Source: a virus. From it: DNA of 13,064 nucleotides. Each line of letters begins with the position of its first letter. The first letter of the stretch is position 1. Positions 1 to 13,064 of the stretch are shown piece by piece. The DNA lies in UHGV virus genome UHGV-0254580. One strand, written 5' to 3'. The position numbers were made by a program, and so were the translations under genes. Below the pieces are notes generated by a model. The model saw only the letters and a list, made by a program, of their open reading frames with translations. It was not told where the DNA came from and made no database searches.

Positions 1-155
1 ACGCCCGGAACGCCCCGCCGTTCCAGCCATATGCGGCACTCCTGGTTAAATTTCATTTTTCGCGGGTATAAAAAAACGATGGGGCGGGCAGTCCGGAAGA
101 CGTCAGGTCACAGGGATTTGACCCGCCCCTCCCCTCTGGCAGTGGGAACTGGTTC

Positions 156-506
156 TTACTTAATCCGTTCACGGGCCGTCTTCGCCTTATGACACGGCCA
201 GCACAGACACTGTAGGTTACTGTCTGCATCGGTGCCGCCATGCGCTTTAGGGATGATGTGGTCAACGGTTTTCGCCTCGCGCACCACACCGGCACGCAGG
301 CACAACTGGCACAGGCCTTTGTCACGCTTCAGCACACGCGCGCGGATAACGTCCCACTTCGAACCATAACCGCGCTGATGACGGGACTGGCCAGACTTGT
401 ATTGCTTCCAGCCTTCGCTTTTGTGGCTTTCGCAGTAGCCTGATGGGTCAGTCGTGGTATGGCGGCAGCCGCGAACGCGGCAGGCTTTTGGGGTTCGTGG
501 AGGCAT
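156..506 (-). CDS. HNH endonuclease (phage packaging-associated type)
   Basis: 116-aa ORF with HNH core DHIIPKAHGG...N...CLCWPCHKAK and an N-terminal Cys pair (CRVRGC...CESH); sits at the packaging-proximal end with the same polarity as late genes. Confidence 0.8.
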   Translation of the reverse strand: MPPRTPKACRVRGCRHTTTDPSGYCESHKSEGWKQYKSGQSRHQRGYGSKWDVIRARVLKRDKGLCQLCLRAGVVREAKTVDHIIPKAHGGTDADSNLQCLCWPCHKAKTARERIK

Positions 507-633
507 CTATTATCCCTGTAGTTTTCGTTAAATATCTAACCATAACTGCAATCAGAAACCGCTTTAACACGGTTTGCTAAATAGACTTTTCAATCCAATG
601 AATAAACGGCAAGTAAATACCAATCGTTCATTT

Positions 634-1068
634 TCATTTGAATACAAACTGTTCTGAAAGAATATTATGACAAATACATTTCGCCTGAATACTATTATCT
701 CTCATTCTAATATATTCTTTGTGGGCAACAGATAAAGAACGACAACCGCTGTTTACACGTGGGTATTTTTCCAACATATGTTCGCATATCAAAAAAGCAT
801 TATTAATAGCATTTAATTTATGGCTTAACTCTCGTAGCTCGGCCCTTTTTTCAATACGAACATTACGACTAAGAGATAAAGGTAGCTGTGATAATGCATT
901 TGAATAATCAGCCACTGCCATTTTCAGAGCCATTTTGGCCTTCAGAGCCTCCTGTCGCCGCCAAACATTCATTGCCCAAAAACCTAATGTAACAGTTACA
1001 ATTGAACCTAAAGCCGATACAGCTGACCACACAGTTCCCCAAGGCCAGTTAAGTAATGTATGCCACAT
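634..1068 (-). CDS. Hypothetical membrane-anchored protein (moron, AT-rich island); start probably the second ATG preceded by GGAGG
   Basis: ORF-track ORF 634..1080 begins at a GTG; the MMWHTLL ATG pair lies just downstream of a GGAGG. Hydrophobic N-terminal segment (WGTVWSAVSALGSIVTVTLGFWAMNVW) followed by a charged helical region and a Cys-containing C-terminus. Local base composition is markedly more AT-rich than flanking phage DNA. Confidence 0.6.
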   Translation of the reverse strand: MWHTLLNWPWGTVWSAVSALGSIVTVTLGFWAMNVWRRQEALKAKMALKMAVADYSNALSQLPLSLSRNVRIEKRAELRELSHKLNAINNAFLICEHMLEKYPRVNSGCRSLSVAHKEYIRMRDNSIQAKCICHNILSEQFVFK

Positions 1069-1436
1069 CATAACCTCCACTGAATGAAAAGGTTAGTTTA
1101 TCGTAAGTGAACATCACTGGCACTATCTAAAGATTAGCTGCTCTACTAGTTGTACTCTCGATAATCTAAACAAAATGATACGTAATAAACCTGTTCATGA
1201 CTAGCTCTACTAGACACATGTTTAATCATCTACAAACGATTTGTACAAACTTCCACTTTCATATTGGTCCAAAAGGTTGGACTAATAGTTAATCACGATG
1301 CATATTTTATGTAAGCTGCTACATTACACTATAAAAACGCTGGCGTCTGAATTTAAGCCCATAAGTTTTATAAAATTATCATAATACACAGCTTTATTAG
1401 GCGCATTCGCACTGATAATGAAAAATATAACTCGAG

Positions 1437-1709
1437 CTATTTGTCTTTCGAATGCAAAATAGCGCGCCGTGATTCAATCTTTCTGATTCCAGTTTTATCA
1501 AAATTACATTGTCCCAAGGCTGACAATAGAGCAACATTCAACTCCAGACTGGTACCATACGTCAGCGGATTGGGTATAAACGGTACAGGAGTATCAGAAG
1601 TCAGGCTGGCTGGCAGTGGTGCCACCGGAGCGCTCACGTAAACCGTTCGCGTACTTCCGCAACCGGTCAGCAGCGGCAGCAGGCACAGGACGTGAAGCAC
1701 AATCATCAT
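1437..1709 (-). CDS. Rz1: Rz1-like outer-membrane spanin lipoprotein (o-spanin), overlapping Rz in a different frame
   Basis: Within ORF 1437..1937, an internal Met start followed by a signal peptide with lipobox LLTGC, a Pro-rich mature region (VSAPVAPLPASLTSDTPVPFIPNP) and a C-terminal Cys; it overlaps the 3' part of the Rz-like ORF and extends past it. Confidence 0.5.
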   Translation of the reverse strand: MMIVLHVLCLLPLLTGCGSTRTVYVSAPVAPLPASLTSDTPVPFIPNPLTYGTSLELNVALLSALGQCNFDKTGIRKIESRRAILHSKDK

Positions 1710-1986
1710 CCGCAACAGCCACTTTGATATCAGCCTGGGTTCTCTGTGACTCCAGTGCGATCTGCTGTTTTGCATGCTGGTTAGCCTCCAGAACTGTATT
1801 GACGAGTTGCAGTGATTGCAGGACGTTACGGGTAATGGCTGTTGCAGATTCAGCATTTTGTACAGCCTCATCAGCACGTTTCTTTTCGTGCTGATATTTG
1901 CTGTAGTAGTGGTTGGCAGACCAGATGAAAGAACCAATGACAGTAAAGAAGAATGCAGCGATAACCAGCTTATAGCTCAACTTCAT
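1594..1986 (-). CDS. Rz: Rz-like inner-membrane spanin (i-spanin)
   Basis: 130-aa ORF immediately after the endolysin with an N-terminal TM helix (LVIAAFFFTVIGSFIWSANHY) and a long helical periplasmic domain; position and architecture of phage Rz. The C-terminus is unusual, so a frameshift or alternative end is possible. Confidence 0.65.
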   Translation of the reverse strand: MKLSYKLVIAAFFFTVIGSFIWSANHYYSKYQHEKKRADEAVQNAESATAITRNVLQSLQLVNTVLEANQHAKQQIALESQRTQADIKVAVADDDCASRPVPAAAADRLRKYANGLRERSGGTTASQPDF

Positions 1987-2446
1987 TTACCACCCCACCA
2001 GCCTCTTTAAACCGGGAAATCAGGTCACTGATTTTATGTTCATACTGACCGTAACCTGCACCAGGTAACGACGCCCAGATATTGCTGCAACGATCGATAG
2101 CCTGACGGATATCACCGCGATCAATCATCGGTAAAGCGCCACGCTCTTTAATCTGTTGCAGTGCCACAGCGTCCTGGCTTTTCGGAGAGAAGTCTTTCAG
2201 GCCAAGCTGCTTACGATAGGCATCCCACCAACGGGAAAGAAGCTGGTAGCGTCCGGCGGCTGTTGATTTGAGTTTGGGGTTTAGCGTGACAAGTTTGCGA
2301 GGGTGATCGGAGTAATCAGTGAATAGCTCTCCGCCTACAATGACGTCATAACCATGATTTCTGGTTTTCTGCCGTCCGTTATCAGTTCCCTCTGACCACG
2401 CCAGCATATCAAGGAACGCCTTACGTTGATTATTGATTTCCACCAT
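1970..2446 (-). CDS. R: Endolysin R (lambda-type lytic transglycosylase)
   Basis: 158-aa protein [53 protein letters not shown]... matches recalled lambda R along most of its length; the last ~25 residues diverge. Confidence 0.9.
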
Positions 2447-2994: not shown

Positions 2995-3070
2995 TGGTGC
3001 TGGTTAACGGACTTGAACCGCTACCCATTCGCTTACAAGGCGACTGCTCTACCATTGGAGCTAAACCAGC
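2995..3070 (-). tRNA. tRNA-Thr (anticodon UGU), phage-encoded, with encoded CCA
   Basis: Manual cloverleaf on the minus strand: acceptor GCTGGTT/AACCAGC (7 bp), D-arm GCTC-CAATGGTA-GAGC, anticodon stem GTCGC/GCGAA with loop CTTGTAA (U33, anticodon TGT, A37), T-arm AGCGG-TTCAAGT-CCGTT, discriminator A, CCA. 76 nt. Confidence 0.6.
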
Positions 3071-3075
3071 ATGTT

Positions 3076-3150
3076 TGGCGGGACAGCGTGGACTCGAACC
3101 ACGATAAGAAGGTTAACAGCCTTCCGTAATGACCTTTATACGACTGACCC
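3076..3150 (-). tRNA. tRNA-Asn (anticodon GUU), phage-encoded, with encoded CCA
   Basis: Manual cloverleaf on the minus strand: acceptor GGGTCAG/CTGTCCC (one U-U mismatch), anticodon stem GAAGG/CCTTC (perfect) with loop CTGTTAA (anticodon GTT), T-arm CGTGG-TTCGAGT-CCACG (perfect), discriminator G, CCA. D-stem is only 3 bp. 75 nt. Confidence 0.5.
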
Positions 3151-3213: not shown

Positions 3214-3732
3214 CTAAATGGCTAATTGCATGTCAAGGCTTTTAACAGCAACATGCTTAACTTTCTCAACACGTTTACGCATTTTGAAAGCATTTTGCAT
3301 TGGTTGGTACAAAACAAATAACGACGCTTTCAGGATGTCGTCAATTTCGTTTCTACAGGTTGCCAGTGAAGGTTTTCTCCATCCCTCGCCACCACGTCCA
3401 CACATCTTGCGTGGCTTTGCAGTCGCGTGATAGTAGGATGCAATTGCTCGCTTAGATGAACCATGAGCGTAGTAGCTGAGGAGGATGCCAAAGGCTTTTT
3501 TGTCAATGCACATGACGGAATCGACGACCTGAGAAATCAACATTCCATCATCATCATTACACATTGGCCTTGTCATAATTCTTCCCGGCTCTACGCTCTC
3601 CATGAACTTAGCTATTACGCTGCTCATGCGCTTTTCCAGACGACCTGAATAAACCCATGCACCCCACAGTTCAAGCCAGCCATTCAGCCACTCGTGCTGT
3701 TCTTTGGTGAGGTTTAGTTCTCTTATGCTCAT
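3214..3732 (-). CDS. Putative late-gene antiterminator (Q-position protein; not lambda Q)
   Basis: 172-aa ORF directly after ninH (start overlaps the ninH stop) and upstream of the late leader, tRNAs and S, i.e. the Q position. Sequence does not resemble recalled lambda Q; the assignment is positional. Confidence 0.45.
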   Translation of the reverse strand: MSIRELNLTKEQHEWLNGWLELWGAWVYSGRLEKRMSSVIAKFMESVEPGRIMTRPMCNDDDGMLISQVVDSVMCIDKKAFGILLSYYAHGSSKRAIASYYHATAKPRKMCGRGGEGWRKPSLATCRNEIDDILKASLFVLYQPMQNAFKMRKRVEKVKHVAVKSLDMQLAI

Positions 3733-6359: not shown

Positions 6360-8240
6360 TTAATACTCCGTCACGTTTTCCTGTCGCCACGCCTCGTCAT
6401 ATTCCGATTTCGGCATATTGGCGATGTAGCTATATGGCGATCCTGATTCAAGTTGCAGGAACTGGTGCGATTGCTCGTCAAGGAACAACGGGACACCACC
6501 TTCCCAACCTTCGCCGTTACGTTGTTTTTCAAGCATCAAAACAGATGCCGGAGATGCCAGTAGCTGTTCGTCCTTCTCTGACATCTTTTCACCACTCTGA
6601 ACTCTCTGTAACGCTCTCTCGCGAGCCTTGTTACGCCAGATGATGAAAAGGTTGTCTGTCAGGTCTGTTATCGCTCCAGAGCCTTTTACGTCCATTTTCC
6701 CGGTTGGTTTTTCTTCGCTGTCACCTTTTCGCGAGTGAGTAACGAGAATGACGTGGGAGTTTGTTTTGTTTTTGAAATCGCAAATCGAGTCAACAAACGC
6801 CTTCTGCCCGTTATAGTCATCGTCGCCTATGCCACATTTCATCAGGCTGTCGATGATGAATAACTGGATGCCGTATCGGCGGCGAGCGTAGTCGAATATT
6901 TCGATCAGCCTGTCGGCTTTCGCCGTTCCGGTCAGGCCAAACACCCAAAGTCTTTCGTCATAAAATTTAAATGCAGAGTCAATTTCCAGCACTGGCGGCA
7001 TCTTGCAGCACGTCGCCTGACGGGTAAGTCGCTTAAGGAGAATGCCTGGCTTCAGCTCAAGTGACGCGATGCACGTCTTCACACCCTGACGCATTGCCTC
7101 AAGTGCCATATGCCCGACAACCTCCGTTTTTCCGTGACCGTTCACACCATTGACCAGCGTCAACTCTGCCTCACGAAACTGGAATTTATCTGCCAGAGAT
7201 TCCCACGGTGGATTAAACAGATACTGCTGCTTGCCGTAGAAAGCGTTGATAGTGTCCTGGTAAAACTCTCGCGCGCTGTAGAGTTCTTCAGGATCGAAGT
7301 AGGATGCCGTGCCAATGTACTGCCAGATTTCATCCTCGGTAACACCGTTCATCAGGCATTCGTTGATGTCTTTGTACGGCAGAGTAACAAGACGGCAACG
7401 ATGTTCACCGAGTCGACTTGCGATTTCCCTTGCGGCTTCACGACCAACATCATCAACGTCCATCGAGATGAATATTTCCTCAAACCTGTCGAGGTTGTGA
7501 TACTCAAACTCAATCCACTGCTGCTTAGCGCCTTTCCCGCCACCAAACGGCACGGATAACGCCGAGATGCCGTATTGCGCATAGCTCATACAATCAATTT
7601 CGCCTTCGCAAAGTACAACCGCCCTCACGCCAGCGTCCAGAGCCTGCCATCCGAACAGACAAGGTTCGCAATCACCTTCTGCCATAATGACTTTCTTCCC
7701 GTCCGGGCGCTCAGTGCTGATTCGCTTGACCTGCAACAACTCACCATCGCGTTTGTACGGAATCACCAGAGCATCCAGTTCCCGCTCTCCATTCCACACC
7801 TTGCCGCTGACAACCTCGTAGCGCTTTACGATTTCTGGCGATATGCCACGCGATTGCAGGTACTCAAGATGGGATTCTGTTCTGGTAACGTAGCGGGCGA
7901 TTTTCTTGCGATCAGGTCTGGAGAATTTCTTCTCACGTTTGGCATCGAAATGGTGATCGTCATCCTTGATACCGAGAAATGCTTTCGCTTCCTGCATAGC
8001 CTGATGCAGATTAATTCCACGACATGACATCCACAAATCAAGCATGTCACCGCCGTCTCCCTCAGCGAAATCAGCCCATTTTTTCTTGCCGCTAAGGTTG
8101 ACCTTAAGGCTGTTTCCCTTGTCACCGTTGACGTTACCGGCAACCCACTCATGCCCCTCTTTCTTGCCGTTTGGCAACAGGTGCGGAGCCACCCTGTCAA
8201 CCTGCGCCCAAAGCAGGTCGCTAAGTTCACTTGGTGTCAT
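6360..8240 (-). CDS. Bifunctional replicative DNA primase/helicase (Toprim primase domain + RecA-fold SF4-like helicase)
   Basis: 626 aa. Toprim-like acidic motifs (VVLCEGEIDCMSY; ISMDVDDVGREAA) in the middle; C-terminal Walker A GVNGHGKTEV and Walker B-like LFIIDSLMKC. Occupies the position of lambda P, downstream of the O-like gene. Confidence 0.8.
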   Translation of the reverse strand: MTPSELSDLLWAQVDRVAPHLLPNGKKEGHEWVAGNVNGDKGNSLKVNLSGKKKWADFAEGDGGDMLDLWMSCRGINLHQAMQEAKAFLGIKDDDHHFDAKREKKFSRPDRKKIARYVTRTESHLEYLQSRGISPEIVKRYEVVSGKVWNGERELDALVIPYKRDGELLQVKRISTERPDGKKVIMAEGDCEPCLFGWQALDAGVRAVVLCEGEIDCMSYAQYGISALSVPFGGGKGAKQQWIEFEYHNLDRFEEIFISMDVDDVGREAAREIASRLGEHRCRLVTLPYKDINECLMNGVTEDEIWQYIGTASYFDPEELYSAREFYQDTINAFYGKQQYLFNPPWESLADKFQFREAELTLVNGVNGHGKTEVVGHMALEAMRQGVKTCIASLELKPGILLKRLTRQATCCKMPPVLEIDSAFKFYDERLWVFGLTGTAKADRLIEIFDYARRRYGIQLFIIDSLMKCGIGDDDYNGQKAFVDSICDFKNKTNSHVILVTHSRKGDSEEKPTGKMDVKGSGAITDLTDNLFIIWRNKARERALQRVQSGEKMSEKDEQLLASPASVLMLEKQRNGEGWEGGVPLFLDEQSHQFLQLESGSPYSYIANMPKSEYDEAWRQENVTEY

Positions 8241-8344
8241 GATTCCCTCAGATTGAGATTTTTAAACCAGAAATCGACAAACGAAATACTTAACCAGCCG
8301 TGGTTATAACCAGCGACCAGTAGCGATTTGATTTTTGATTTCAT
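8237..8344 (-). CDS. Possible 35-aa coupled ORF filling the O / primase-helicase intergenic gap
   Basis: ATG 3 nt after the O stop, preceded by AGGTGA; translation MKSKIKSLLVAGYNHGWLSISFVDFWFKNLNLRES; its TGA overlaps the primase-helicase ATG (ATGA). Short SD spacing; unverified. Confidence 0.3.
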   Translation of the reverse strand: MKSKIKSLLVAGYNHGWLSISFVDFWFKNLNLRES

Positions 8345-8347
8345 GGT

Positions 8348-9208
8348 TCACCTGTCGAAAAACACGTAGCCAGTTTTCGATACGGTGATTGCGGATGATG
8401 GTTTGGATTGTGGTTGAATGGTTTCTGGCTTTTCGTCGTTCCAGCGCTGACCGTTCAGGTAGCTCGATGGTAACAACCTGTCGAATCCGAACTGCTTACC
8501 ATTCCTGCATGCGATGTCTTCTGCCAGCATCGTGGCAAACTCGCTTGCTGTACCCCTTGTAGTTTTACGCCATTCCCTGAACTGTGTTCTGAATGCCGAA
8601 GCCGCGTTTTTCTTCCCGGCTTTCCGCATGCCTGCACACCAGAATATTTCCTCGAATGCCTTGTCGGTTTCTTCGTGACGGTCAGATGATTTTTCACACT
8701 CCGTCCGAACACTTTCGGACATAGTGTTTTTATTATTTCTTTTTTCTTTTGTAATAGTTTCTTTTGTGTGTCCCTGTTTTGGTGACAGCGCTGTCACCGT
8801 TTTGGTGACACTTTTTGTCACCAATGCAGTGACATTATCACCAGAGTAGTGACACCCTTCGATTTGCCATTCTTCGATGTTCTTGTTAGGCCCAATTTGC
8901 TGGCCTTCGCGAAGGATAACCTTCATCGCGATAAGCTCATTCTTGGCCTTGTTTACCTTCTGTCTTGGCAGCCTGGTAATTTGAGCTAACTGACTATCAG
9001 AGATGCGATCCATCTTTTTACCGTAGCCGTATGTTTTACGGCATATGGCGTGGGCAACCTTGCTCTGATTTTTCGTTAAATCTGCGCCGATAAGCTCTTC
9101 ATACAGGGCATTTGCAAGACGGGTATAACCATCTTCAACTTCTGCCACACGACGCTCCACAGGCCGTTGTGAAGGCCTTAAATGTGTTACGGTTGCAAGA
9201 TTACTCAT
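8348..9208 (-). CDS. O: Replication initiator, lambda O-like N-terminal origin-binding domain with divergent C-terminal domain
   Basis: N-terminal region [56 protein letters not shown]...GPNKNIEEW parallels recalled lambda O (DGYARLSNMLLEAYSGADLTKRQFKVLLAILRKTYGWNKPMDRITDSQLSEITKLP...GPNKNISEW). Iterons lie inside the gene, as for lambda ori. Confidence 0.85.
8720..8856. repeat. Putative origin of replication: iteron array (GTGACA/TGTCAC-based, about 23-bp period) plus adjacent AT-rich tract inside the O-like gene
   Basis: 18-bp perfect palindrome GGTGACAGCGCTGTCACC (8781-8798), GGTGACACTTTTTGTCACC (8804-8822), then GTGACATTATCACC and AGTGACAC; immediately adjacent AT-rich tract 8720-8765. 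Confidence 0.6.
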
Positions 9209-9347
9209 GACCTTTCTCCTTCTGCATCAGCTTCACTTTTTCCAACTCAGCCCGGAATCGACCAGGCTGCTTGAAGCTGGACAGGAAGCGATCACGTAGT
9301 ATGTGTTTGTGAATTTTGTCCTGGTAAGGACTGAGTTGTTTTGTCAT
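9201..9347 (-). CDS. Possible 48-aa basic protein between cII and O (translationally coupled to O)
   Basis: Not in the ORF track. AGGAG 7 nt upstream of the ATG; translation [48 protein letters not shown]; its TAA lies within the first codons of O (ATGAGTAA). Confidence 0.4.
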
Positions 9348-9356
9348 AATGACTCC

Positions 9357-9425
9357 TGTGGATTGATCCAGTCTTTCTACATCAGGCCTCGAAGAATTCG
9401 CCGTTCTTCGGGGCTTTTTCTTTTG
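9357..9425 (+). ncRNA. Candidate oop-like antisense RNA with intrinsic terminator overlapping the cII 3' end
   Basis: Plus-strand hairpin CGAAGAA-TTCGCCG-TTCTTCG followed by GGGCTTTTTCTTTT at about 9399-9432, antisense to the cII C-terminus; a CATAAT -10-like hexamer at 9345-9350. Positional analogue of lambda oop; extent approximate. Confidence 0.35.
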
Positions 9426-9663
9426 TCAGGTAATTGGCAAGCCGCTTAGTCAGCTCAGCCATTTCATCGTCTTCGATTCCGTATTCCAGAACAGCCAGCA
9501 TCATGCTTACCTGCGAGAAGAAACCATTCTTCCATCGGCTTACCTGATATTCAGGAACCCCCATTGCTCGAGCGAATGTCTTCTGCCCCATCAGTGCCAG
9601 TTTGTTCAGCAAGGCTGACTCGATGCGAGCCGCTTTCTTGCTTTTAGTTGCAATAGTACTCAT
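9382..9663 (-). CDS. cII: cII-like transcriptional activator
   Basis: 93-aa protein ...[64 protein letters not shown]... parallels recalled lambda cII (...[60 protein letters not shown]...). Confidence 0.85.
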
Positions 9664-9739
9664 AGATAATTTCCTTAATGATTAGATAGAGTTGGCTTCG
9701 CAAAGAAACGCAAAACCATAGAGATTTGTTTCTGGTAAT

Positions 9740-9771
9740 GCCCTTTTTCAGGGCGGGGATGTGTAAGAGCG
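9740..9771 (-). promoter_or_regulatory. nutR-like N-utilisation site (boxA CGCTCTTAC... and boxB GCCCTGAAAAAGGGC hairpin)
   Basis: Minus strand reads CGCTCTTACACATCCCCGCCCTGAAAAAGGGC between cro and cII; the boxB stem-loop GCCCT-GAAAAA-GGGC matches the lambda nutR type. Confidence 0.7.
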
Positions 9772-9779
9772 TTAATAAC

Positions 9780-10010
9780 TTAAGCGGCCATTAATTCAGG
9801 CCAGATGCTTTCCCAATCAACCGGATGAAGGTCTTTGCGAGTCACTTCACCATTGCTGAACTTCTCAATCAGAACACAAAGTGCTGCGCCCAATTCATGA
9901 TTACGGCTAAGTGCTTTCCTCAAATAGCCGATAGAAGTTCCGCACTTGGTGGCAAATTCTCTCTGCTCTTCCAGTGAAAGGGAGTTCAGATACAAGCGGA
10001 GTTCTTCCAT
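9780..10010 (-). CDS. cro: Cro-like HTH repressor (76 aa), first gene of the rightward early operon
   Basis: Divergent from cI across the operator region; RBS GGAAGGAG upstream of the ATG; HTH-like segment QREFATKCGTSIGYLRKAL. Assignment is positional plus HTH. Confidence 0.65.
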   Translation of the reverse strand: MEELRLYLNSLSLEEQREFATKCGTSIGYLRKALSRNHELGAALCVLIEKFSNGEVTRKDLHPVDWESIWPELMAA

Positions 10011-10118
10011 TTGCTATCTCCTTCCCGTTGTTGAATAAGATGAGTTTACCTGTAGGTAAAAATCAAATAAATACCCATAGGTTATTTACCGGCAGGTAAT
10101 CAAAGATAGAATTAAATC
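10011..10118. promoter_or_regulatory. OR-like divergent control region (PR/PRM) with three TACCnnnnGGTA-type operators
   Basis: Operator cores TACCTGTAGGTA (10047-10058), TACCCATAGGTT (10072-10083, imperfect) and TACCGGCAGGTA (10087-10098). Candidate PRM -10 TAGAAT (10107-10112) ends about 6 nt before the cI ATG with no SD, suggesting a leaderless cI mRNA as in lambda. Confidence 0.7.
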
Positions 10119-10805
10119 ATGGATAAATACGAACAAAGACGACTAAGGCTGATAGAGATAAGAGACCGATTCTGTAATGGAAAGGCCTCAGAGTTGGCTC
10201 GTCGAATAGAAAGGGAACCATCATACGTTTCCAGAATGCTGTATCCGGAAGGAAAAAGCGGAAAAAAACGCATTGCTGACGATATGATGGAACTAATTGA
10301 AAAATCTTTTAATCTCCCACGCGGATGGATGGACATGCTTGCAGATGGTAAAGCTGGAGCTACAGACCATCTTGAGTTTGCGGGTAACGTTCGTGCGGGT
10401 TTTGTTCCGGTAATTGGTGAAGCCGTTTTGGGAGTTGATGGCTCAGTGGATATGATTGAATTCAGATCCGGTTGGTTAAGCATCTACAGCGGCGATAACG
10501 ATGCTTACGGTCTGAAGGTTAAGGGTGACAGCATGTGGCCAAGGATTCAGTCAGGAGAATATGTTGTTATTGAACCAAATACGCCAGTACATCCAGGTGA
10601 TGAAGTCTTTGTAAGGACCAAAGACGGTCACAACATGATAAAGATCATGAACAAAACAAGAGACGGTGATTATCAGTTTAGTAGCATAAACAGTGATCAC
10701 CGCCCAATCACTCTTCCTGTTGAAGAAGTTGATAAAATGCATTTTGTTTCAGCTATTGTGAAACACACCAGGTACGTAGACCAGGACGATCTGCCAAAAG
10801 TTTGA
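10119..10805 (+). CDS. cI: cI repressor (N-terminal HTH, C-terminal LexA/S24-peptidase autocleavage domain)
   Basis: 228-aa protein with HTH-like ELARRIEREPSYVSRML and C-terminal S24 features (GDSMWP Ser motif, downstream Lys); divergent from cro across palindromic operators. Not lambda cI by sequence. Confidence 0.9.
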   Translation: MDKYEQRRLRLIEIRDRFCNGKASELARRIEREPSYVSRMLYPEGKSGKKRIADDMMELIEKSFNLPRGWMDMLADGKAGATDHLEFAGNVRAGFVPVIGEAVLGVDGSVDMIEFRSGWLSIYSGDNDAYGLKVKGDSMWPRIQSGEYVVIEPNTPVHPGDEVFVRTKDGHNMIKIMNKTRDGDYQFSSINSDHRPITLPVEEVDKMHFVSAIVKHTRYVDQDDLPKV

Positions 10806-10819
10806 GGATAAAGCAGCAA

Positions 10820-11116
10820 GTGTTTATACCCGGCATAGTAGTCGCTGTTGTAATCATCTGCTTCATATGGGCAAAGTTATCTCCTGTAAGCTCTAAGCAT
10901 ACAGCTGAACTCATGAAGAAGAAGCATCTTATACATGAGGCAGAATCGATAATTAAAAAGTTCAAAGGCATGTCATACGACGACATGTCATCAGAGCAGA
11001 TTGCTATGTATAAATGCGCCATTGAGCGTCTTGACTACTTAAACGGACTCAAACCCAAACACACCCCAGTAGAATCAAAATTGCCGCAATGGCCAAGCAA
11101 TCCAAATAGCTTCTGA
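10820..11116 (+). CDS. Small membrane-anchored protein co-transcribed with cI (rex-position accessory gene); alternative TTG start at 10802
   Basis: Track ORF 10802..11116 starts at a TTG overlapping the cI stop; a GTG at 10820 has GAGGA about 11 nt upstream. N-terminal TM helix (FIPGIVVAVVIICFIWAKL) then a charged soluble domain; followed by a terminator. Confidence 0.6.
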   Translation: MFIPGIVVAVVIICFIWAKLSPVSSKHTAELMKKKHLIHEAESIIKKFKGMSYDDMSSEQIAMYKCAIERLDYLNGLKPKHTPVESKLPQWPSNPNSF

Positions 11117-11127
11117 CATCTCCTTTC

Positions 11128-11150
11128 AGCCCGCAAAGCGGGCTTTTTTA
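11128..11150 (+). terminator. Intrinsic terminator ending the cI operon
   Basis: AGCCCGC-AAA-GCGGGCT followed by TTTTTTA, 11 bp after the stop of the membrane-protein ORF. Confidence 0.65.
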
Positions 11151-11168
11151 TATCAATCCAAAAAATTA

Positions 11169-11253
11169 ATTACCTGAAAATTCAAGCAGGTAAACTCTTA
11201 CATCAATTTTATTTACCTGCAGGTATAGACAACTGTTTTACCTGTAGGTATAT
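11169..11253 (+). promoter_or_regulatory. OL/PL-like region: operators (TACCTGCAGGTA and TACCTGTAGGTA) overlapping a leftward-type promoter driving N
   Basis: Perfect palindrome TACCTGCAGGTA (11213-11224) and TACCTGTAGGTA (11238-11249), 25 bp apart; split palindrome TTACCTG-N10-CAGGTAA (11169-11192). Candidate -35 TAGACA (11225-11230), 17-bp spacer, -10 TATATT (11248-11253). Confidence 0.7.
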
Positions 11254-11295
11254 TTTAGGCCATCAGCAGGACGCACTGACCACCATGAAGGTGAT

Positions 11296-11326
11296 GCTCT
11301 TAAAAATTAAGCCCTGAAGAAGGGCA
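11296..11326 (+). promoter_or_regulatory. nutL-like site (boxA TGCTCTTAA, boxB GCCCTGAAGAAGGGC)
   Basis: Reads GATGCTCTTAAAAATTAAGCCCTGAAGAAGGGC between PL and N; boxB hairpin GCCCT-GAAGAA-GGGC as recalled for lambda nutL. Confidence 0.75.
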
Positions 11327-11482
11327 GCATTCAAAGCAGAAGGCTTTGGTGTGTGTGATACGAAACGAAGCATTGGCCGGAAGTGCGAATCCGGATTAGC
11401 TGTCAATGTGCCATTGCTGGGTGTTTTCGTTCAGGACTACGACTCCCACACACAACCAAAGCTAACTGACAGGAGAATCCAG

Positions 11483-11806
11483 ATGGATGCACAAACACGC
11501 CGCCGCGAACGTCGCGCAGAGAAACAGGCTCAATGGAAAGCAGCAAATCCCCTGTTGGTTGGGGTAAGCGCAAAACCAGTTAACCGCCCTATTCTCTCGC
11601 TGAATCGCAAACCGAAATCACGAGTAGAAAGCGCACTAAATCCGATAGACCTTACAGTGCTGGCTGAATACCACAAACAGATTGAAAGCAACCTGCAACG
11701 TATTGAGCGCAAGAATCAGCGCACATGGTACAGCAAGCCTGGCGAACGCGGCATAACATGCAGTGGACGCCAGAAAATTAAGGGAAAATCGATTCCTCTT
11801 ACTTAG
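11483..11806 (+). CDS. N: Antitermination protein N (lambda-type)
   Basis: 107-aa product MDAQTRRRERRAEKQAQWKAANPLLVGVSAKPVNRPILSLNRKPKSRVESALNPIDLTVLAEYHKQIESNLQRIERKNQRTWYSKPGERGITCSGRQKIKGKSIPLT from the internal ATG of track ORF 11351..11806, preceded by AGGAGA; matches recalled lambda N including the Arg-rich boxB-binding N-terminus. Confidence 0.9.
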   Translation: MDAQTRRRERRAEKQAQWKAANPLLVGVSAKPVNRPILSLNRKPKSRVESALNPIDLTVLAEYHKQIESNLQRIERKNQRTWYSKPGERGITCSGRQKIKGKSIPLT

Positions 11807-12361
11807 TTACTTAGATATTGGCCTTGGCTTTATCTCAATATTATATGGATCATAGCTGGCAACTAATTCAGTCCAGTAAATATCCTCAATAGGGAATAAT
11901 ATATGCTTCCCGTTCCATCGGGAAAAAGTTTTGTTCAACACACCAAGCTCAATCAACTCACTAATGTATGGGAATTGTTTTGATGTAACCACATACTTCC
12001 TGCCTTCATTAAGGGCTGCGCACAAAACCATAGATTGCTCTTCTGTAAGGTTTTGAATTACTGATCGCACTTTATCGTTTTGCATCTTAATGCGTTTTCT
12101 TAGCTTAAATCGCTTATATCTGGCGCTGGCAATAGCTGATAATCGATGCACATTAATTGCTAGCGAAAATGCAAGAGCAAAGACGAAAACATGCCACACA
12201 TGAGGAATACCGATTCTCTCATTAACATATTCAGGCCAGTTATCTGGGCTTAAAAGCAGAAGTCCAACCCAGATAACGATCATATACATGGTTCTCTCCA
12301 GAGGTTCATTACTGAACACTCGTCCGAGAATAACGAGTGGATCCATTTCTATACTCATCAA
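11807..12361 (-). CDS. sieB: Superinfection exclusion protein B (SieB), lambda-type
   Basis: 184-aa membrane protein abutting the N stop on the opposite strand; length, position and polarity match recalled lambda sieB; hydrophobic N-terminal segments. Confidence 0.8.
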   Translation of the reverse strand: MMSIEMDPLVILGRVFSNEPLERTMYMIVIWVGLLLLSPDNWPEYVNERIGIPHVWHVFVFALAFSLAINVHRLSAIASARYKRFKLRKRIKMQNDKVRSVIQNLTEEQSMVLCAALNEGRKYVVTSKQFPYISELIELGVLNKTFSRWNGKHILFPIEDIYWTELVASYDPYNIEIKPRPISK

Positions 12362-12485
12362 ACTGTAGGGGTTGTAATAGTTTATCCGATTTCTCGCTGT
12401 AGGGGTACACGAGAACCACCGAGCCTGATGTGGTTAAAAGACAGGCACAATCTTTACTACCGCTATCCACTATTTAAGGTGATAT

Positions 12486-12572
12486 ATGGAAGAAGAATTT
12501 GAAGAGTTCGAAGAGCATCCTCAGGATGTGATGGAACAATACCAGGACTATCCGTATGACTACGACTATTGA
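12486..12572 (+). CDS. Small acidic ORF (28 aa; lambda orf28-like) overlapping the ral start by 17 nt
   Basis: MEEEFEEFEEHPQDVMEQYQDYPYDYDY; position 124 bp from the sieB start and 17-nt overlap with ral match the recalled lambda arrangement. Expression unverified. Confidence 0.4.
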   Translation: MEEEFEEFEEHPQDVMEQYQDYPYDYDY

Positions 12573-12756
12573 TAAAAATCAATGGTGTGGACAATTCAAG
12601 CGATGCAATGGATGCAAGCTGCAATCGGAATACATGGTTAAGCCTGAAGAAATGTTTCCTGTAATGGAAGATGGGAAATATGTCGATAAATGGGCAATAC
12701 GAACGACGGCAATGATTGCCAGAGAACTTGGTAAACAGAACAACAAAGCTGCCTGA
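12556..12756 (+). CDS. ral: Restriction alleviation protein Ral (lambda-type)
   Basis: 66-aa ORF MTTTIDKNQWCGQFKRCNGCKLQSEYMVKPEEMFPVMEDGKYVDKWAIRTTAMIARELGKQNNKAA; size and position (N, sieB, orf28, ral, ea10) as in lambda. Confidence 0.8.
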   Translation: MTTTIDKNQWCGQFKRCNGCKLQSEYMVKPEEMFPVMEDGKYVDKWAIRTTAMIARELGKQNNKAA

Positions 12757-12893
12757 TAGTGACCTTTATTTTTGGCATAAATAACAGAATAAACACTGCA
12801 CTGTGTATTCATTCCAACGAGTGAATACACGGAGCAATGTCGCTCGTAACTAAACAGGAGCCGACTTGTTCTGATTATTGGAAATCTTCTTTG

Positions 12894-12920
12894 CCCTCCA
12901 GTGTGAGGGAGATTTTTTAT
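12894..12920 (+). terminator. Candidate weak intrinsic terminator between ral and ea10
   Basis: CCCTC-CAGTGT-GAGGG hairpin followed by AGATTTTTTAT on the PL-transcribed strand. Confidence 0.35.
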
Positions 12921-12938
12921 CTATGAGGATATGAATAG

Positions 12939-13064
12939 ATGTCAAACATCAAAAAATACATCATTGATTACGACTGGAAAGCATCAATAGAAATTGAAAT
13001 CGACCATGACGTAATGACAGAGGAAAAACTTCACCAGATTAATAATTTCTGGTCAGACTCTGAA
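12939..13064 (+). CDS. ea10: Ea10-like protein, 5' partial (runs off the window end)
   Basis: ATG at 12939 preceded by GAGGA; open to the window end (MSNIKKYIIDYDWKASIEIEIDHDVMTEEKLHQINNFWSDSE...). The 182-bp spacing from the ral stop matches the recalled lambda ral-ea10 spacing. Confidence 0.6.
   Translation, partial: MSNIKKYIIDYDWKASIEIEIDHDVMTEEKLHQINNFWSDSE

Follow-up and report, generated by a model that had tools for sequence, protein, structure and literature searches.

A window of 13,064 nucleotides, i.e., the whole stretch of DNA from virus genome UHGV-0254580 that was analysed, carries a repressor gene, a cro gene and operator-like sites between nutR on one side and nutL and N on the other. 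This raises two questions: to which immunity type does the control region belong, and where is it joined to lambda-like DNA? The first-pass annotation had proposed a natural hybrid of the imm type, in which non-lambda cI, cro and operators lie between lambda-type nut sites. We assign a probability of about 90% to the following reading: the region, part of a lambdoid phage or prophage of mosaic make-up, is a lysis-lysogeny switch whose cI, Cro and OR and OL operators are of the mEp043 immunity type, and to which a lambda-like pL arm was joined by homologous recombination. That is, judged by its sequence, the region is already known: it is an ordinary lambda-family control region that shares its repressor, Cro and operators with the sequenced phage mEp043.

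Identity of the immunity region

The region has the layout of a lambdoid switch. The genes cI (+ strand) and cro (- strand) diverge from a 108-bp gap that holds three operator-like sites, and a second operator cluster, OL, overlaps pL upstream of nutL and N. The features of the cro-cI side are listed below; element coordinates in the first-pass annotation were each exact or off by a few bases.

9780-10010, - strand: cro, mEp043 type; 76 aa; phrog_35 (transcriptional repressor), E = 7.5e-16
10045-10060, unstranded: OR1, predicted operator TTTACCTGTAGGTAAA; overlaps the inferred pR -10
10070-10085, unstranded: OR2, predicted operator AATACCCATAGGTTAT
10085-10100, unstranded: OR3, predicted operator TTTACCGGCAGGTAAT; overlaps the -35 of the pRM-like promoter
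10085-10112, + strand: pRM-like promoter, TTTACC, 16 nt, TAGAAT; consensus scan, 9/12 match
10119-10805, + strand: cI repressor; 228 aa; N-terminal HTH domain and C-terminal S24 self-cleaving domain; Pfam Peptidase_S24, E = 1.4e-17

Positions 6802-11355 of the window are 98.8% identical to mEp043 at the nucleotide level. The two cI proteins agree in 227/228 aa and the operator half-sites are identical, such that an immunity region of unknown type is ruled out. The order cII, nutR, cro, OR, cI, small ORF, terminator, OL, nutL is collinear between the window and mEp043 (JQ182734 / NC_019706 / PV340537). Furthermore, the published qPCR primers for mEp043 cI (PMC3442831) have their matches in the window, near 10317-10337 and 10381-10400. 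Phage mEp043 is treated as a separate immunity group (PMC3442831), which, according to papers that cite Kameyama 1999, was defined there by phenotype.

Comparison with lambda gives a different picture. No lambda nucleotide match is found by blastn for 9772-11260, the window's cI aligns with lambda cI over just 55 aa (31% identity) that surround the S24 serine motif, the two Cro proteins are not significantly similar (E = 2.3), and the operators differ from the 17-bp ones of lambda. This refutes the reading that the immunity region is lambda's own and that the first-pass annotation had merely been mistaken about lambda's cI, cro and operators. We found nothing in favour of that reading, as the S24 serine motif is all that the two regions have in common, and we consider it practically impossible. 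The non-lambda nature of the cassette, as originally proposed, is thus borne out.

The region is not of the 434 type either. Apart from a weak similarity in cII, lambda imm434 has no match in the window to the left of 11252. The cI protein of 434 is 23% identical in the C-terminal and 11% in the N-terminal domain, and 434 cI, cro and operators are unrelated to those of the window. The architecture is nevertheless shared, i.e., lambda imm434 also carries a heterologous cI-cro-operator block with its left bound at the pL transcription start, followed by a nutL-N-sieB-ral arm that is 99.1% identical to the window's.

Repressor, Cro and the OR region

The repressor's domain content is that of a self-cleaving phage repressor. 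Its catalytic dyad consists of Ser138, located in GDSM and invariant in the alignment, and presumably Lys175, assigned from the MIKI motif; Leu104-Gly105 occupies the aligned cleavage position. A sequence search of cI against the PDB gave no match at E <= 0.01. Cro matches the PDB chains 8co2/8c7k, which are named 'phage antirepressor protein Cro' (E = 2e-10).

Operator-like sites are strongly enriched. For the pattern TTACC-N4-GGTAA with at most one mismatch, we find 4 sites, all of them in the two control regions, compared to 0.29 expected; none of 200 shuffles reaches 4. The OR2 half-sites are unchanged in alleles of 92-99% identity. Since the pattern used to retrieve the IMG/VR loci of ~75% identity demanded OR half-sites, we left the OR of these loci out of the conservation evidence and used OL, which lies outside the pattern. 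Among sister alleles with 84% aa identity in cI, the HTH region hardly varies and the half-sites at OL do not differ.

The spacing of the operators relative to cI follows lambda in part. The centres of OR1 and OR2 precede the cI ATG by 66.5 and 41.5 bp (lambda: -66 and -42, respectively). In contrast, OR2 and OR3 abut, with centres 15 bp apart compared to 23 bp in lambda; the autoregulation logic may therefore differ in detail. The inferred -10 of pR is TAAACT (10048 to 10043, - strand), with a weak -35, TTTATT, that the consensus promoter scan missed.

These positions suggest a switch that would work as follows. By analogy with lambda, the repressor would bind three 16-bp sites at OR and two at OL, all with the pattern TTTACC-N4-GGTAAA, and thereby shut both pR, which serves cro, cII and the replication genes, and pL, which serves N, sieB, ral and the genes beyond. 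Transcription from pRM would start at or next to the cI ATG and give a leaderless cI mRNA as in lambda. In the activation geometry that we infer, repressor at OR2 would activate this transcript, which also carries the gene of a small membrane protein, and the position of OR3 over the pRM -35 would provide negative autoregulation. The prophage would presumably be inducible via RecA-stimulated self-cleavage of the repressor.

The small gene after cI

10802-11116, + strand: small gene following cI; 104 aa with TTG as start codon, 98 aa with the GTG at 10820; N-terminal hydrophobic helix
11128-11150, + strand: intrinsic terminator at the end of the cI operon; 7-bp GC-rich stem and T-run; -12.6 kcal/mol, z = -4.7

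Lysogens probably express the small gene as part of the cI operon. The gene matches phrog_10450, a family of unknown function (E = 1.4e-54), has no match among Pfam or NCBIfam families, and is annotated as hypothetical in mEp043. Where 434 carries hex after cI, the window has this unrelated ORF (no similarity to 434 Hex). A lysogen-expressed accessory gene with a terminator after cI is a feature shared with lambda, as are the divergent cI/cro pair around a tripartite OR, the probably leaderless cI and the position of OL/pL upstream of nutL-N. Repressor, Cro and operator sequences are unlike lambda's, and rexAB is absent from the window. Apart from two tRNAs, an Rfam scan of the whole window yielded no hits, i.e., no RNA family in the immunity region.

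OL, pL and a split repeat

11170-11193, unstranded: split inverted repeat TTACCTG-N10-CAGGTAA; two operator half-sites with an extra helical turn between them; upstream of OL2
11212-11227, unstranded: OL2, predicted operator TTTACCTGCAGGTATA
11226-11254, + strand: pL promoter, TAGACA, 17 nt, TATATT; 10/12 match; no other promoter-like site of the region does better
11237-11252, unstranded: OL1, predicted operator TTTACCTGTAGGTATA; between the pL -35 and -10

Conservation is most pronounced at OL. In 25 distinct OL alleles, the half-sites of OL1 and OL2 show no substitution, with all changes confined to the central 4 bp and the inter-operator spacer, and the pL -35 is invariant. The split repeat is kept in 24 of these 25 alleles, including one from a ~75%-identical cassette. 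Unlike lambda, the window has only two canonical OL operators and no canonical OL3.

This arrangement invites comparison with 933W and phi24B, whose repressor is the nearest characterised relative of the window's cI (about 50% identity overall, 62% in the C-terminal domain). Both repressors have Leu-Gly at the aligned cleavage position. The 933W repressor is presumably cleaved at this Leu-Gly. Neither PMC4848623 nor PMC5977221 makes that point. Likewise, the OR1-OR2 spacing is 25 bp in both, as annotated for 24B, and both have two canonical OL sites. The kinship is restricted to the C-terminal domain: the N-terminal domains are only 20% identical, the operators of 24B (e.g., CGTACTTTCAGTACG) are unrelated to the window's TTTACC-N4-GGTAAA, and N/nut system and flanking genes differ as well.

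A switch that runs on 933W-like logic, i.e., without pairwise cooperativity, with two OL sites, a low repressor level and easy induction, and with the split half-site pair in place of OL3, would fit these similarities. It would also agree with the literature, in which 933W lacks OL3 and its repressor is reported not to bind cooperatively (PMC3317979). Because the C-terminal domain is 62% identical to that of the reportedly non-cooperative 933W repressor, lambda-style cooperativity cannot be assumed for the window's repressor. On the other hand, 62% identity does not fix cooperativity, and OR1 and OR2 have lambda's positions relative to pRM. We regard 933W-like logic as a tentative option with the odds against it.

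Going one step further, the mEp043-type switch may follow a logic that differs from lambda's altogether. Its repressor would join a DNA-binding domain of its own to a C-terminal domain of the 933W kind, with Leu-Gly aligned to the cleavage position, and the switch would combine this with abutting OR2/OR3 and two canonical OL operators, with the split pair at 11170-11193 acting as a new kind of third OL site, through either looping or an extended binding mode. We consider this unlikely. If true, it would define a widespread E. coli prophage family with a switch logic unlike that of lambda, 434, P22 and 933W.

nut sites, the lambda-type arm and its junctions

The elements that flank the mEp043-type cassette are given below.

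9382-9663, - strand: cII-like activator, mEp043/EC1515 allele; 93 aa; Pfam Phage_CII, E = 7e-30
9740-9771, - strand: nutR; boxB GCCCTGAAAAAGGGC at 9740-9754, boxA CGCTCTTA at 9764-9771
11261-11355 (95 bp), + strand: shared segment that opens at the pL start and closes just beyond nutL; nearly the same sequence in the window, mEp043, 434 and lambda (three- and four-way alignments)
11295-11325, + strand: nutL; boxA-like TGCTCTTA at 11295-11302, boxB GCCCTGAAGAAGGGC at 11311-11325
11356-11482, + strand: N leader, lambda type (alignments)
11483-11806, + strand: N antiterminator, lambda type; 107 aa; Pfam N36, E = 1.5e-26
11807-12361, - strand: sieB, superinfection exclusion gene, lambda type; Pfam SieB; phrog_6399, E = 2e-114; inside the lambda-like block
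12486-12572, + strand: orf28
12556-12756, + strand: ral
12939 onward, + strand: start of ea10 (ATG at 12939), cut by the window end at 13064

The N/nut system belongs to lambda's specificity class. Both boxB sequences are identical to lambda's, are preceded by a boxA and are predicted to fold into a 5-bp stem with a pentaloop. The boxA of nutR is that of lambda, and the one of nutL differs at its first base (T for C). N is identical to lambda N in 106/107 aa, the sole change being I107T, such that the N-terminal 36-mer is wholly conserved. The lambda type of nutL, nutR and N, claimed from the outset, is therefore confirmed. N and the nut sites of phage 21, in contrast, are not known to be of lambda type. 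Once pL and pR fire, the lambda-type N would be expected to bind the boxB hairpins of nutL and nutR and to cause antitermination.

From 11261 to the window end at 13064, nucleotide identity with lambda is 98.8%. Gene order (N-sieB-orf28-ral-ea10) and spacing, i.e., a sieB-orf28 gap of 124 nt, an orf28/ral overlap of 17 nt and a ral-ea10 gap of 182 nt, equal the lambda annotation exactly, as the first-pass annotation had stated. In mEp043, nutL and nutR are likewise of lambda type and N is 93.5% identical to the window's at the nucleotide level. Its pL arm, however, lacks sieB, ral and ea10 and carries TolA-like and other genes; the window turns lambda-type after 11355. Where the window has the lambda-type N leader, mEp043 and most cassette carriers show a different, longer spacer, which in mEp043 is unrelated to the window's.

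Homology to lambda sets in at 11261, a single base ahead of the pL start of lambda, and homology to 434 at 11252. The left junction with lambda thus lies between OL1 and nutL. A junction between OL and nutL had been proposed before, and this placement stands when the window is compared with lambda. Relative to mEp043, the alignments instead place the crossover that joins the mEp043-type cassette to the lambda-type arm within the shared 95-bp segment. Here, the handful of informative sites is contradictory (11278 is as in lambda, 11295 as in mEp043) and both positions are polymorphic among alleles, which precludes a finer placement. Homologous recombination within this segment would account for the joining of cassette and arm.

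On the other side, the nutR core forms a 36-nt island with 34/36 nt identical to lambda and flanks diverged in both directions. In 434, lambda identity resumes right after cro at nutR; in the window it does not. The cII protein is only 49% identical to lambda cII (about 66% at the nucleotide level), and the replication module consists of an O-like gene and a primase/helicase instead of lambda O/P. The lambda arm is consequently present on one side of the window only. A second junction near nutR, as first suggested, does not hold for the window, which lacks lambda-grade identity to the right of nutR. It does exist in E. coli K56-43-un and OkiPb01675, where the same cassette is followed by lambda-identical sequence from the nutR boxA on, through cII. 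On this side, nutR is the conserved joint that corresponds to the pL-nutL segment, and in the window it leads into a non-lambda cII and replication module.

Occurrence in E. coli genomes

Of 5426 complete E. coli genomes, 52 contain the cassette, and 15 of these have the lambda N-sieB arm as well. These 15 comprise EC1515, whose prophage adjoins ybhC (the lambda attachment-site region), and 14 others; all share the same cassette and lambda-type arm, from cII through ea10. The EC1515 prophage is 99.97% identical to window positions 9340-13064 and departs from it at the cII/O junction near 9340: it has a lambda O/P-type replication module, disrupted by IS3, and the window has the mEp043-type O-like gene and primase/helicase. 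Among 40 related loci, module boundaries recur at 11348-11355, at nutR (about 9700) and at 9338-9340; the break at 11348-11355 is seen again in most of them.

The mosaic is natural because identical DNA is found in prophages of E. coli isolates from clinical and animal sources. The idea of a natural imm-type hybrid survives in part, with lambda-like DNA restricted to the N side. A laboratory-built lambda immunity hybrid in the manner of lambda imm434 might be suspected, given that the left boundary is no more than about 10 bp away from the one between lambda and 434 DNA in that phage. Such a construct is extremely improbable: cII, Q, the replication genes and a large part of the nin region are not those of lambda, and the same cassette and arm occur at 99.9-100% identity in clinical, animal and food E. 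coli chromosomes from several countries as well as in IMG/VR contigs.

The cassette could also be a relic within a defective prophage, i.e., a conserved sequence that no longer controls a viable phage. The EC1515 relative, with IS insertions and truncated replication and nin genes, points in this direction, and no complete E. coli genome covers at least 80% of the whole 13-kb window. We nevertheless consider it very unlikely, as the window has an intact set of switch genes, conserved operators and promoters, and full-length ORFs for replication, nin, Q and lysis genes. In addition, mEp043, with its nearly identical cassette, is a plaque-forming phage.

Biological meaning

For annotation, the value lies in the assignment itself: the prophage carries mEp043 immunity, which has little significance beyond correct annotation. 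Given this immunity, its predicted phenotype is resistance to mEp043-type phages and sensitivity to lambda, 434 and similar phages, combined with lambda-type N antitermination. Two loose ends have some research value, namely the small gene after cI and the conserved split half-site element at OL. For the family, the locus is a well-populated and clean case of the textbook modular exchange among lambdoid phages: dozens of genomes pair this cassette, cut at the same three conserved joints (the segment from pL start to nutL, the boxA of nutR and the junction of cII and O), with differing arms.

Identity of the immunity block

The window covers a lambdoid early-to-lysis region, drawn in reverse of the standard lambda map such that N lies on the + strand. 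Starting at the low-coordinate end, its ORFs are, in order, HNH gene; Rz/Rz1, R and S; two tRNAs; Q-like gene and nin genes; 626-aa primase/helicase and O-like gene; DUF2740 ORF; cII, cro, cI and a small ORF; N, sieB, orf28, ral and the start of ea10. The immunity block is a known type, that of phage mEp043, inside an ordinary natural mosaic; DNA identical to it can already be found in public records of phages and E. coli genomes.

The first-pass annotation had described a hybrid with repressor, cro and operators unlike those of lambda, placed between lambda-type nutR and nutL/N. We aligned the region to lambda and found this factual part to be correct, i.e., the immunity region is not lambda-identical. 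There is no blastn match to lambda within 9772-11260, cI has only the S24 serine motif in common with lambda cI (31% over 55 aa), and Cro is unrelated to lambda Cro by sequence comparison.

A megablast search against phage records gave a single strong match family, namely three mEp043 records (98.8%). The gapless pairwise alignment with mEp043 covers 6802-11355 (98.8%) and spans primase/helicase, O-like gene, cII, nutR, cro, OR, cI, small ORF, terminator, OL and nutL; 227/228 aa of cI are the same. After mEp043, the closest repressors in the phage collection, at about 50% identity, are of the 933W/phi24B Stx-phage type. mEp043 is a member of a Mexican faecal lambdoid collection, picked to cover different immunity groups (PMC9836094), and has been used as a phage with an immunity group of its own (PMC3442831). 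Both published mEp043-specific cI qPCR primers (PMC3442831) are found in the window. Given this identity and the recognised immunity group, the "different" repressor, cro and operators represent an immunity type that is already sequenced and phenotypically recognised.

The replication module is also built as in mEp043. Window 1-2033 has no match to mEp043. A 40-mer taken from 1-2033 is absent from GTDB species representatives. The late-transcript leader holds the two tRNA genes, with the Q-like antiterminator gene (3214-3732) on one side and the holin gene (2430-2753) on the other.

Replication module and side genes
6360-9208, - strand: 626-aa primase/helicase fusion and O-like initiator
2995-3070 and 3076-3150, - strand: tRNA-Thr(TGT) and tRNA-Asn(GTT)
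156-506, - strand: HNH endonuclease-like ORF, 116 aa, downstream of the lysis genes
634-1080, - strand: unannotated 148-aa ORF, hydrophobic N-terminus, downstream of the lysis genes

Lambda-type arm and junctions

Antitermination sites and pL arm
9740-9754, - strand: nutR boxB, GCCCTGAAAAAGGGC
9764-9771, - strand: nutR boxA, CGCTCTTA
11295-11302, + strand: nutL boxA-like, TGCTCTTA
11311-11325, + strand: nutL boxB, GCCCTGAAGAAGGGC
11483-11806, + strand: N, 1 of 107 residues unlike lambda N
11807-12361: sieB
12486-12572: orf28
12556-12756: ral
12939: ea10 ATG

N and both nut sites are lambda-type as proposed. Each boxB folds as the expected 5-bp stem with pentaloop, and window 11261-13064 is 98.8% identical to lambda from 35583 leftward (blastn). 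The suggested lambda order and spacing of N-sieB-orf28-ral-ea10 holds exactly (sieB-orf28 gap of 124 nt, orf28/ral overlap of 17 nt, ral-ea10 gap of 182 nt). The nutR boxA equals that of lambda, while the nutL boxA differs in its first base, a position where cassette alleles carry T, C or G.

Regarding the left junction, which had been placed between OL and nutL, the answer depends on the reference. In a three-way alignment, window, mEp043 and lambda turn near-identical at 11261, i.e., 8 bp past OL1 and one base before the A at 11262 that matches the 5' end of lambda pL mRNA (AUCAGCAGG), which we take to be the pL start. Since the near-identity begins here, the heterology boundary with regard to lambda is, by alignment, the putative pL start, in agreement with the proposal. 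434 DNA converges with the window at the same place (11252), and all four remain together through nutL up to 11355. Past this point, the window tracks lambda to its end, while mEp043 has a different, longer nutL-N spacer and rejoins inside N at 93.5%. With regard to mEp043, the true parent type, the proposed position does not hold: the crossover lies somewhere in the shared 95-bp segment 11261-11355, where informative sites conflict and are polymorphic.

On the nutR side, lambda-likeness is restricted to a 36-nt core (34/36; boxA, spacer, boxB and two further bases) with flanks diverged both ways, and cII shows 49% aa identity to lambda cII. Beyond the immunity region on this side, similarity to lambda is otherwise confined to the lysis genes S and R (96%), 338 bp in ninE-ninF (95%) and two short patches, of 33 bp where cII meets O and of 67 bp where lambda ren meets ninB. 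With lambda-like DNA limited to these pieces, the window is not lambda with swapped immunity. Of the imm-type hybrid, the natural mosaic thus stands but not the simple immunity substitution; from the alignments, the window is a mosaic throughout, in which only the N side has an arm of lambda-grade identity. Likewise, the junction assumed near nutR is not found in the window, but it does exist in two other genomes, where the cassette's right end is joined to lambda-identical DNA from nutR boxA (97.5-99% to lambda rutA, nutR and cII). These breaks at boxA show nutR serving as the right-hand recombination joint.

Cassette-to-lambda nutR/cII joints (coordinates of the respective locus)
2092-2492: L007, E. 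coli K56-43-un
2379-2492: L008, OkiPb01675

Operators, promoters and repressor

Each operator spans 16 bp and follows the pattern TTTACC-N4-GGTAAA.

Operators and promoters
10045-10060: OR1
10070-10085: OR2, AATACC....GGTTAT
10085-10100: OR3, overlapping the -35 of the pRM-like promoter
11212-11227: OL2
11237-11252: OL1, between the pL hexamers
pL: TAGACA, 17 nt, TATATT
pRM-like promoter: TTTACC, 16 nt, TAGAAT

Allowing at most 1 mismatch, the core pattern occurs 4 times (0.29 expected), always within the operator regions. Among 25 distinct OL alleles, one of which stems from a cassette with about 75% DNA identity, the OL1/OL2 half-sites and the pL -35 are invariant, while variation is free in the 4 central bp and in the spacer between the operators, as would fit a dimeric HTH protein that contacts the half-sites. 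The predicted pRM-like start would be at or beside the cI ATG, as in lambda; OR1 and OR2 are centred 66.5 and 41.5 bp upstream of this ATG (lambda: 66 and 42 bp). For pR, we infer TTTATT, 17 nt, TAAACT, set in the register seen at pL; this candidate is below the promoter-scan threshold.

The repressor (cI, 10119-10805) is a domain mosaic. Compared to the phi24B/933W repressor, its C-terminal domain shows 62% identity but its N-terminal domain only 20%, and the operators of 24B bear no sequence relation to those of the window. Leu104-Gly105 aligns with the lambda cleavage site Ala111-Gly112; 24B also has Leu-Gly at this position. The window has only two canonical OL operators, and 933W is likewise reported to lack OL3, with OR1 and OR2 bound without cooperativity (PMC3317979, PMC5977221).

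A split inverted repeat (TTACCTG-N10-CAGGTAA, 11170-11193) has the operator half-sites one helical turn wider apart than in the five operators. They are kept in 24/25 distinct OL alleles, including that of the 75%-identical cassette. Among the features described, only this repeat might be worth experimental work.

The small ORF after cI

Small ORF and terminator
10802-11116, + strand: small ORF overlapping the cI stop codon, 104 aa from TTG or 98 aa from GTG at 10820
11128-11150: strong terminator after the small ORF

The encoded protein carries a hydrophobic helix at its N-terminus; it matches phrog_10450, a family of unknown function, and gave no hit in Pfam or NCBIfam. Its position is that of lambda rexAB or 434 hex, although it is unrelated to Hex, and based on this position it is probably expressed in lysogens. 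NCBI PGAP calls the ORF in K56-43-un but not in EC1515 and 3/4 other examined E. coli genomes.

Distribution of the cassette

Using a threshold of at least 97% identity over 9780-11260, the cro-to-OL block is present in 52/5426 complete E. coli genomes and chromosomal in every case; 15 of the 52 also have the lambda-type N-sieB arm. The prophage of the urinary-tract isolate E. coli EC1515 adjoins ybhC, in the region of the lambda attachment site, and shows one mismatch to window 9340-13064. It has lambda-type O/P, where the window has the mEp043-like primase/helicase and O-like genes, with the swap at the cII/O junction near 9340.

GTDB provided one further Escherichia species representative with the cassette, and an IMG/VR search with the OR half-site pattern gave 34 contigs. 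Four of these contigs (L014, L024, L032, L036) form a sister lineage (about 75% nt, cI 84% aa, Cro 89% aa), which probably shares the immunity specificity, given its identical operator half-sites and almost invariant cI residues 20-45 (putative helix-turn-helix).

The breaks of all mapped loci cluster at 9338-9340 (cII/O junction), about 9700 (nutR), 11348-11355 (just past nutL) and 11739-11781 (end of N). That is, the distribution of the cassette is standard lambdoid modular exchange at short conserved joints.
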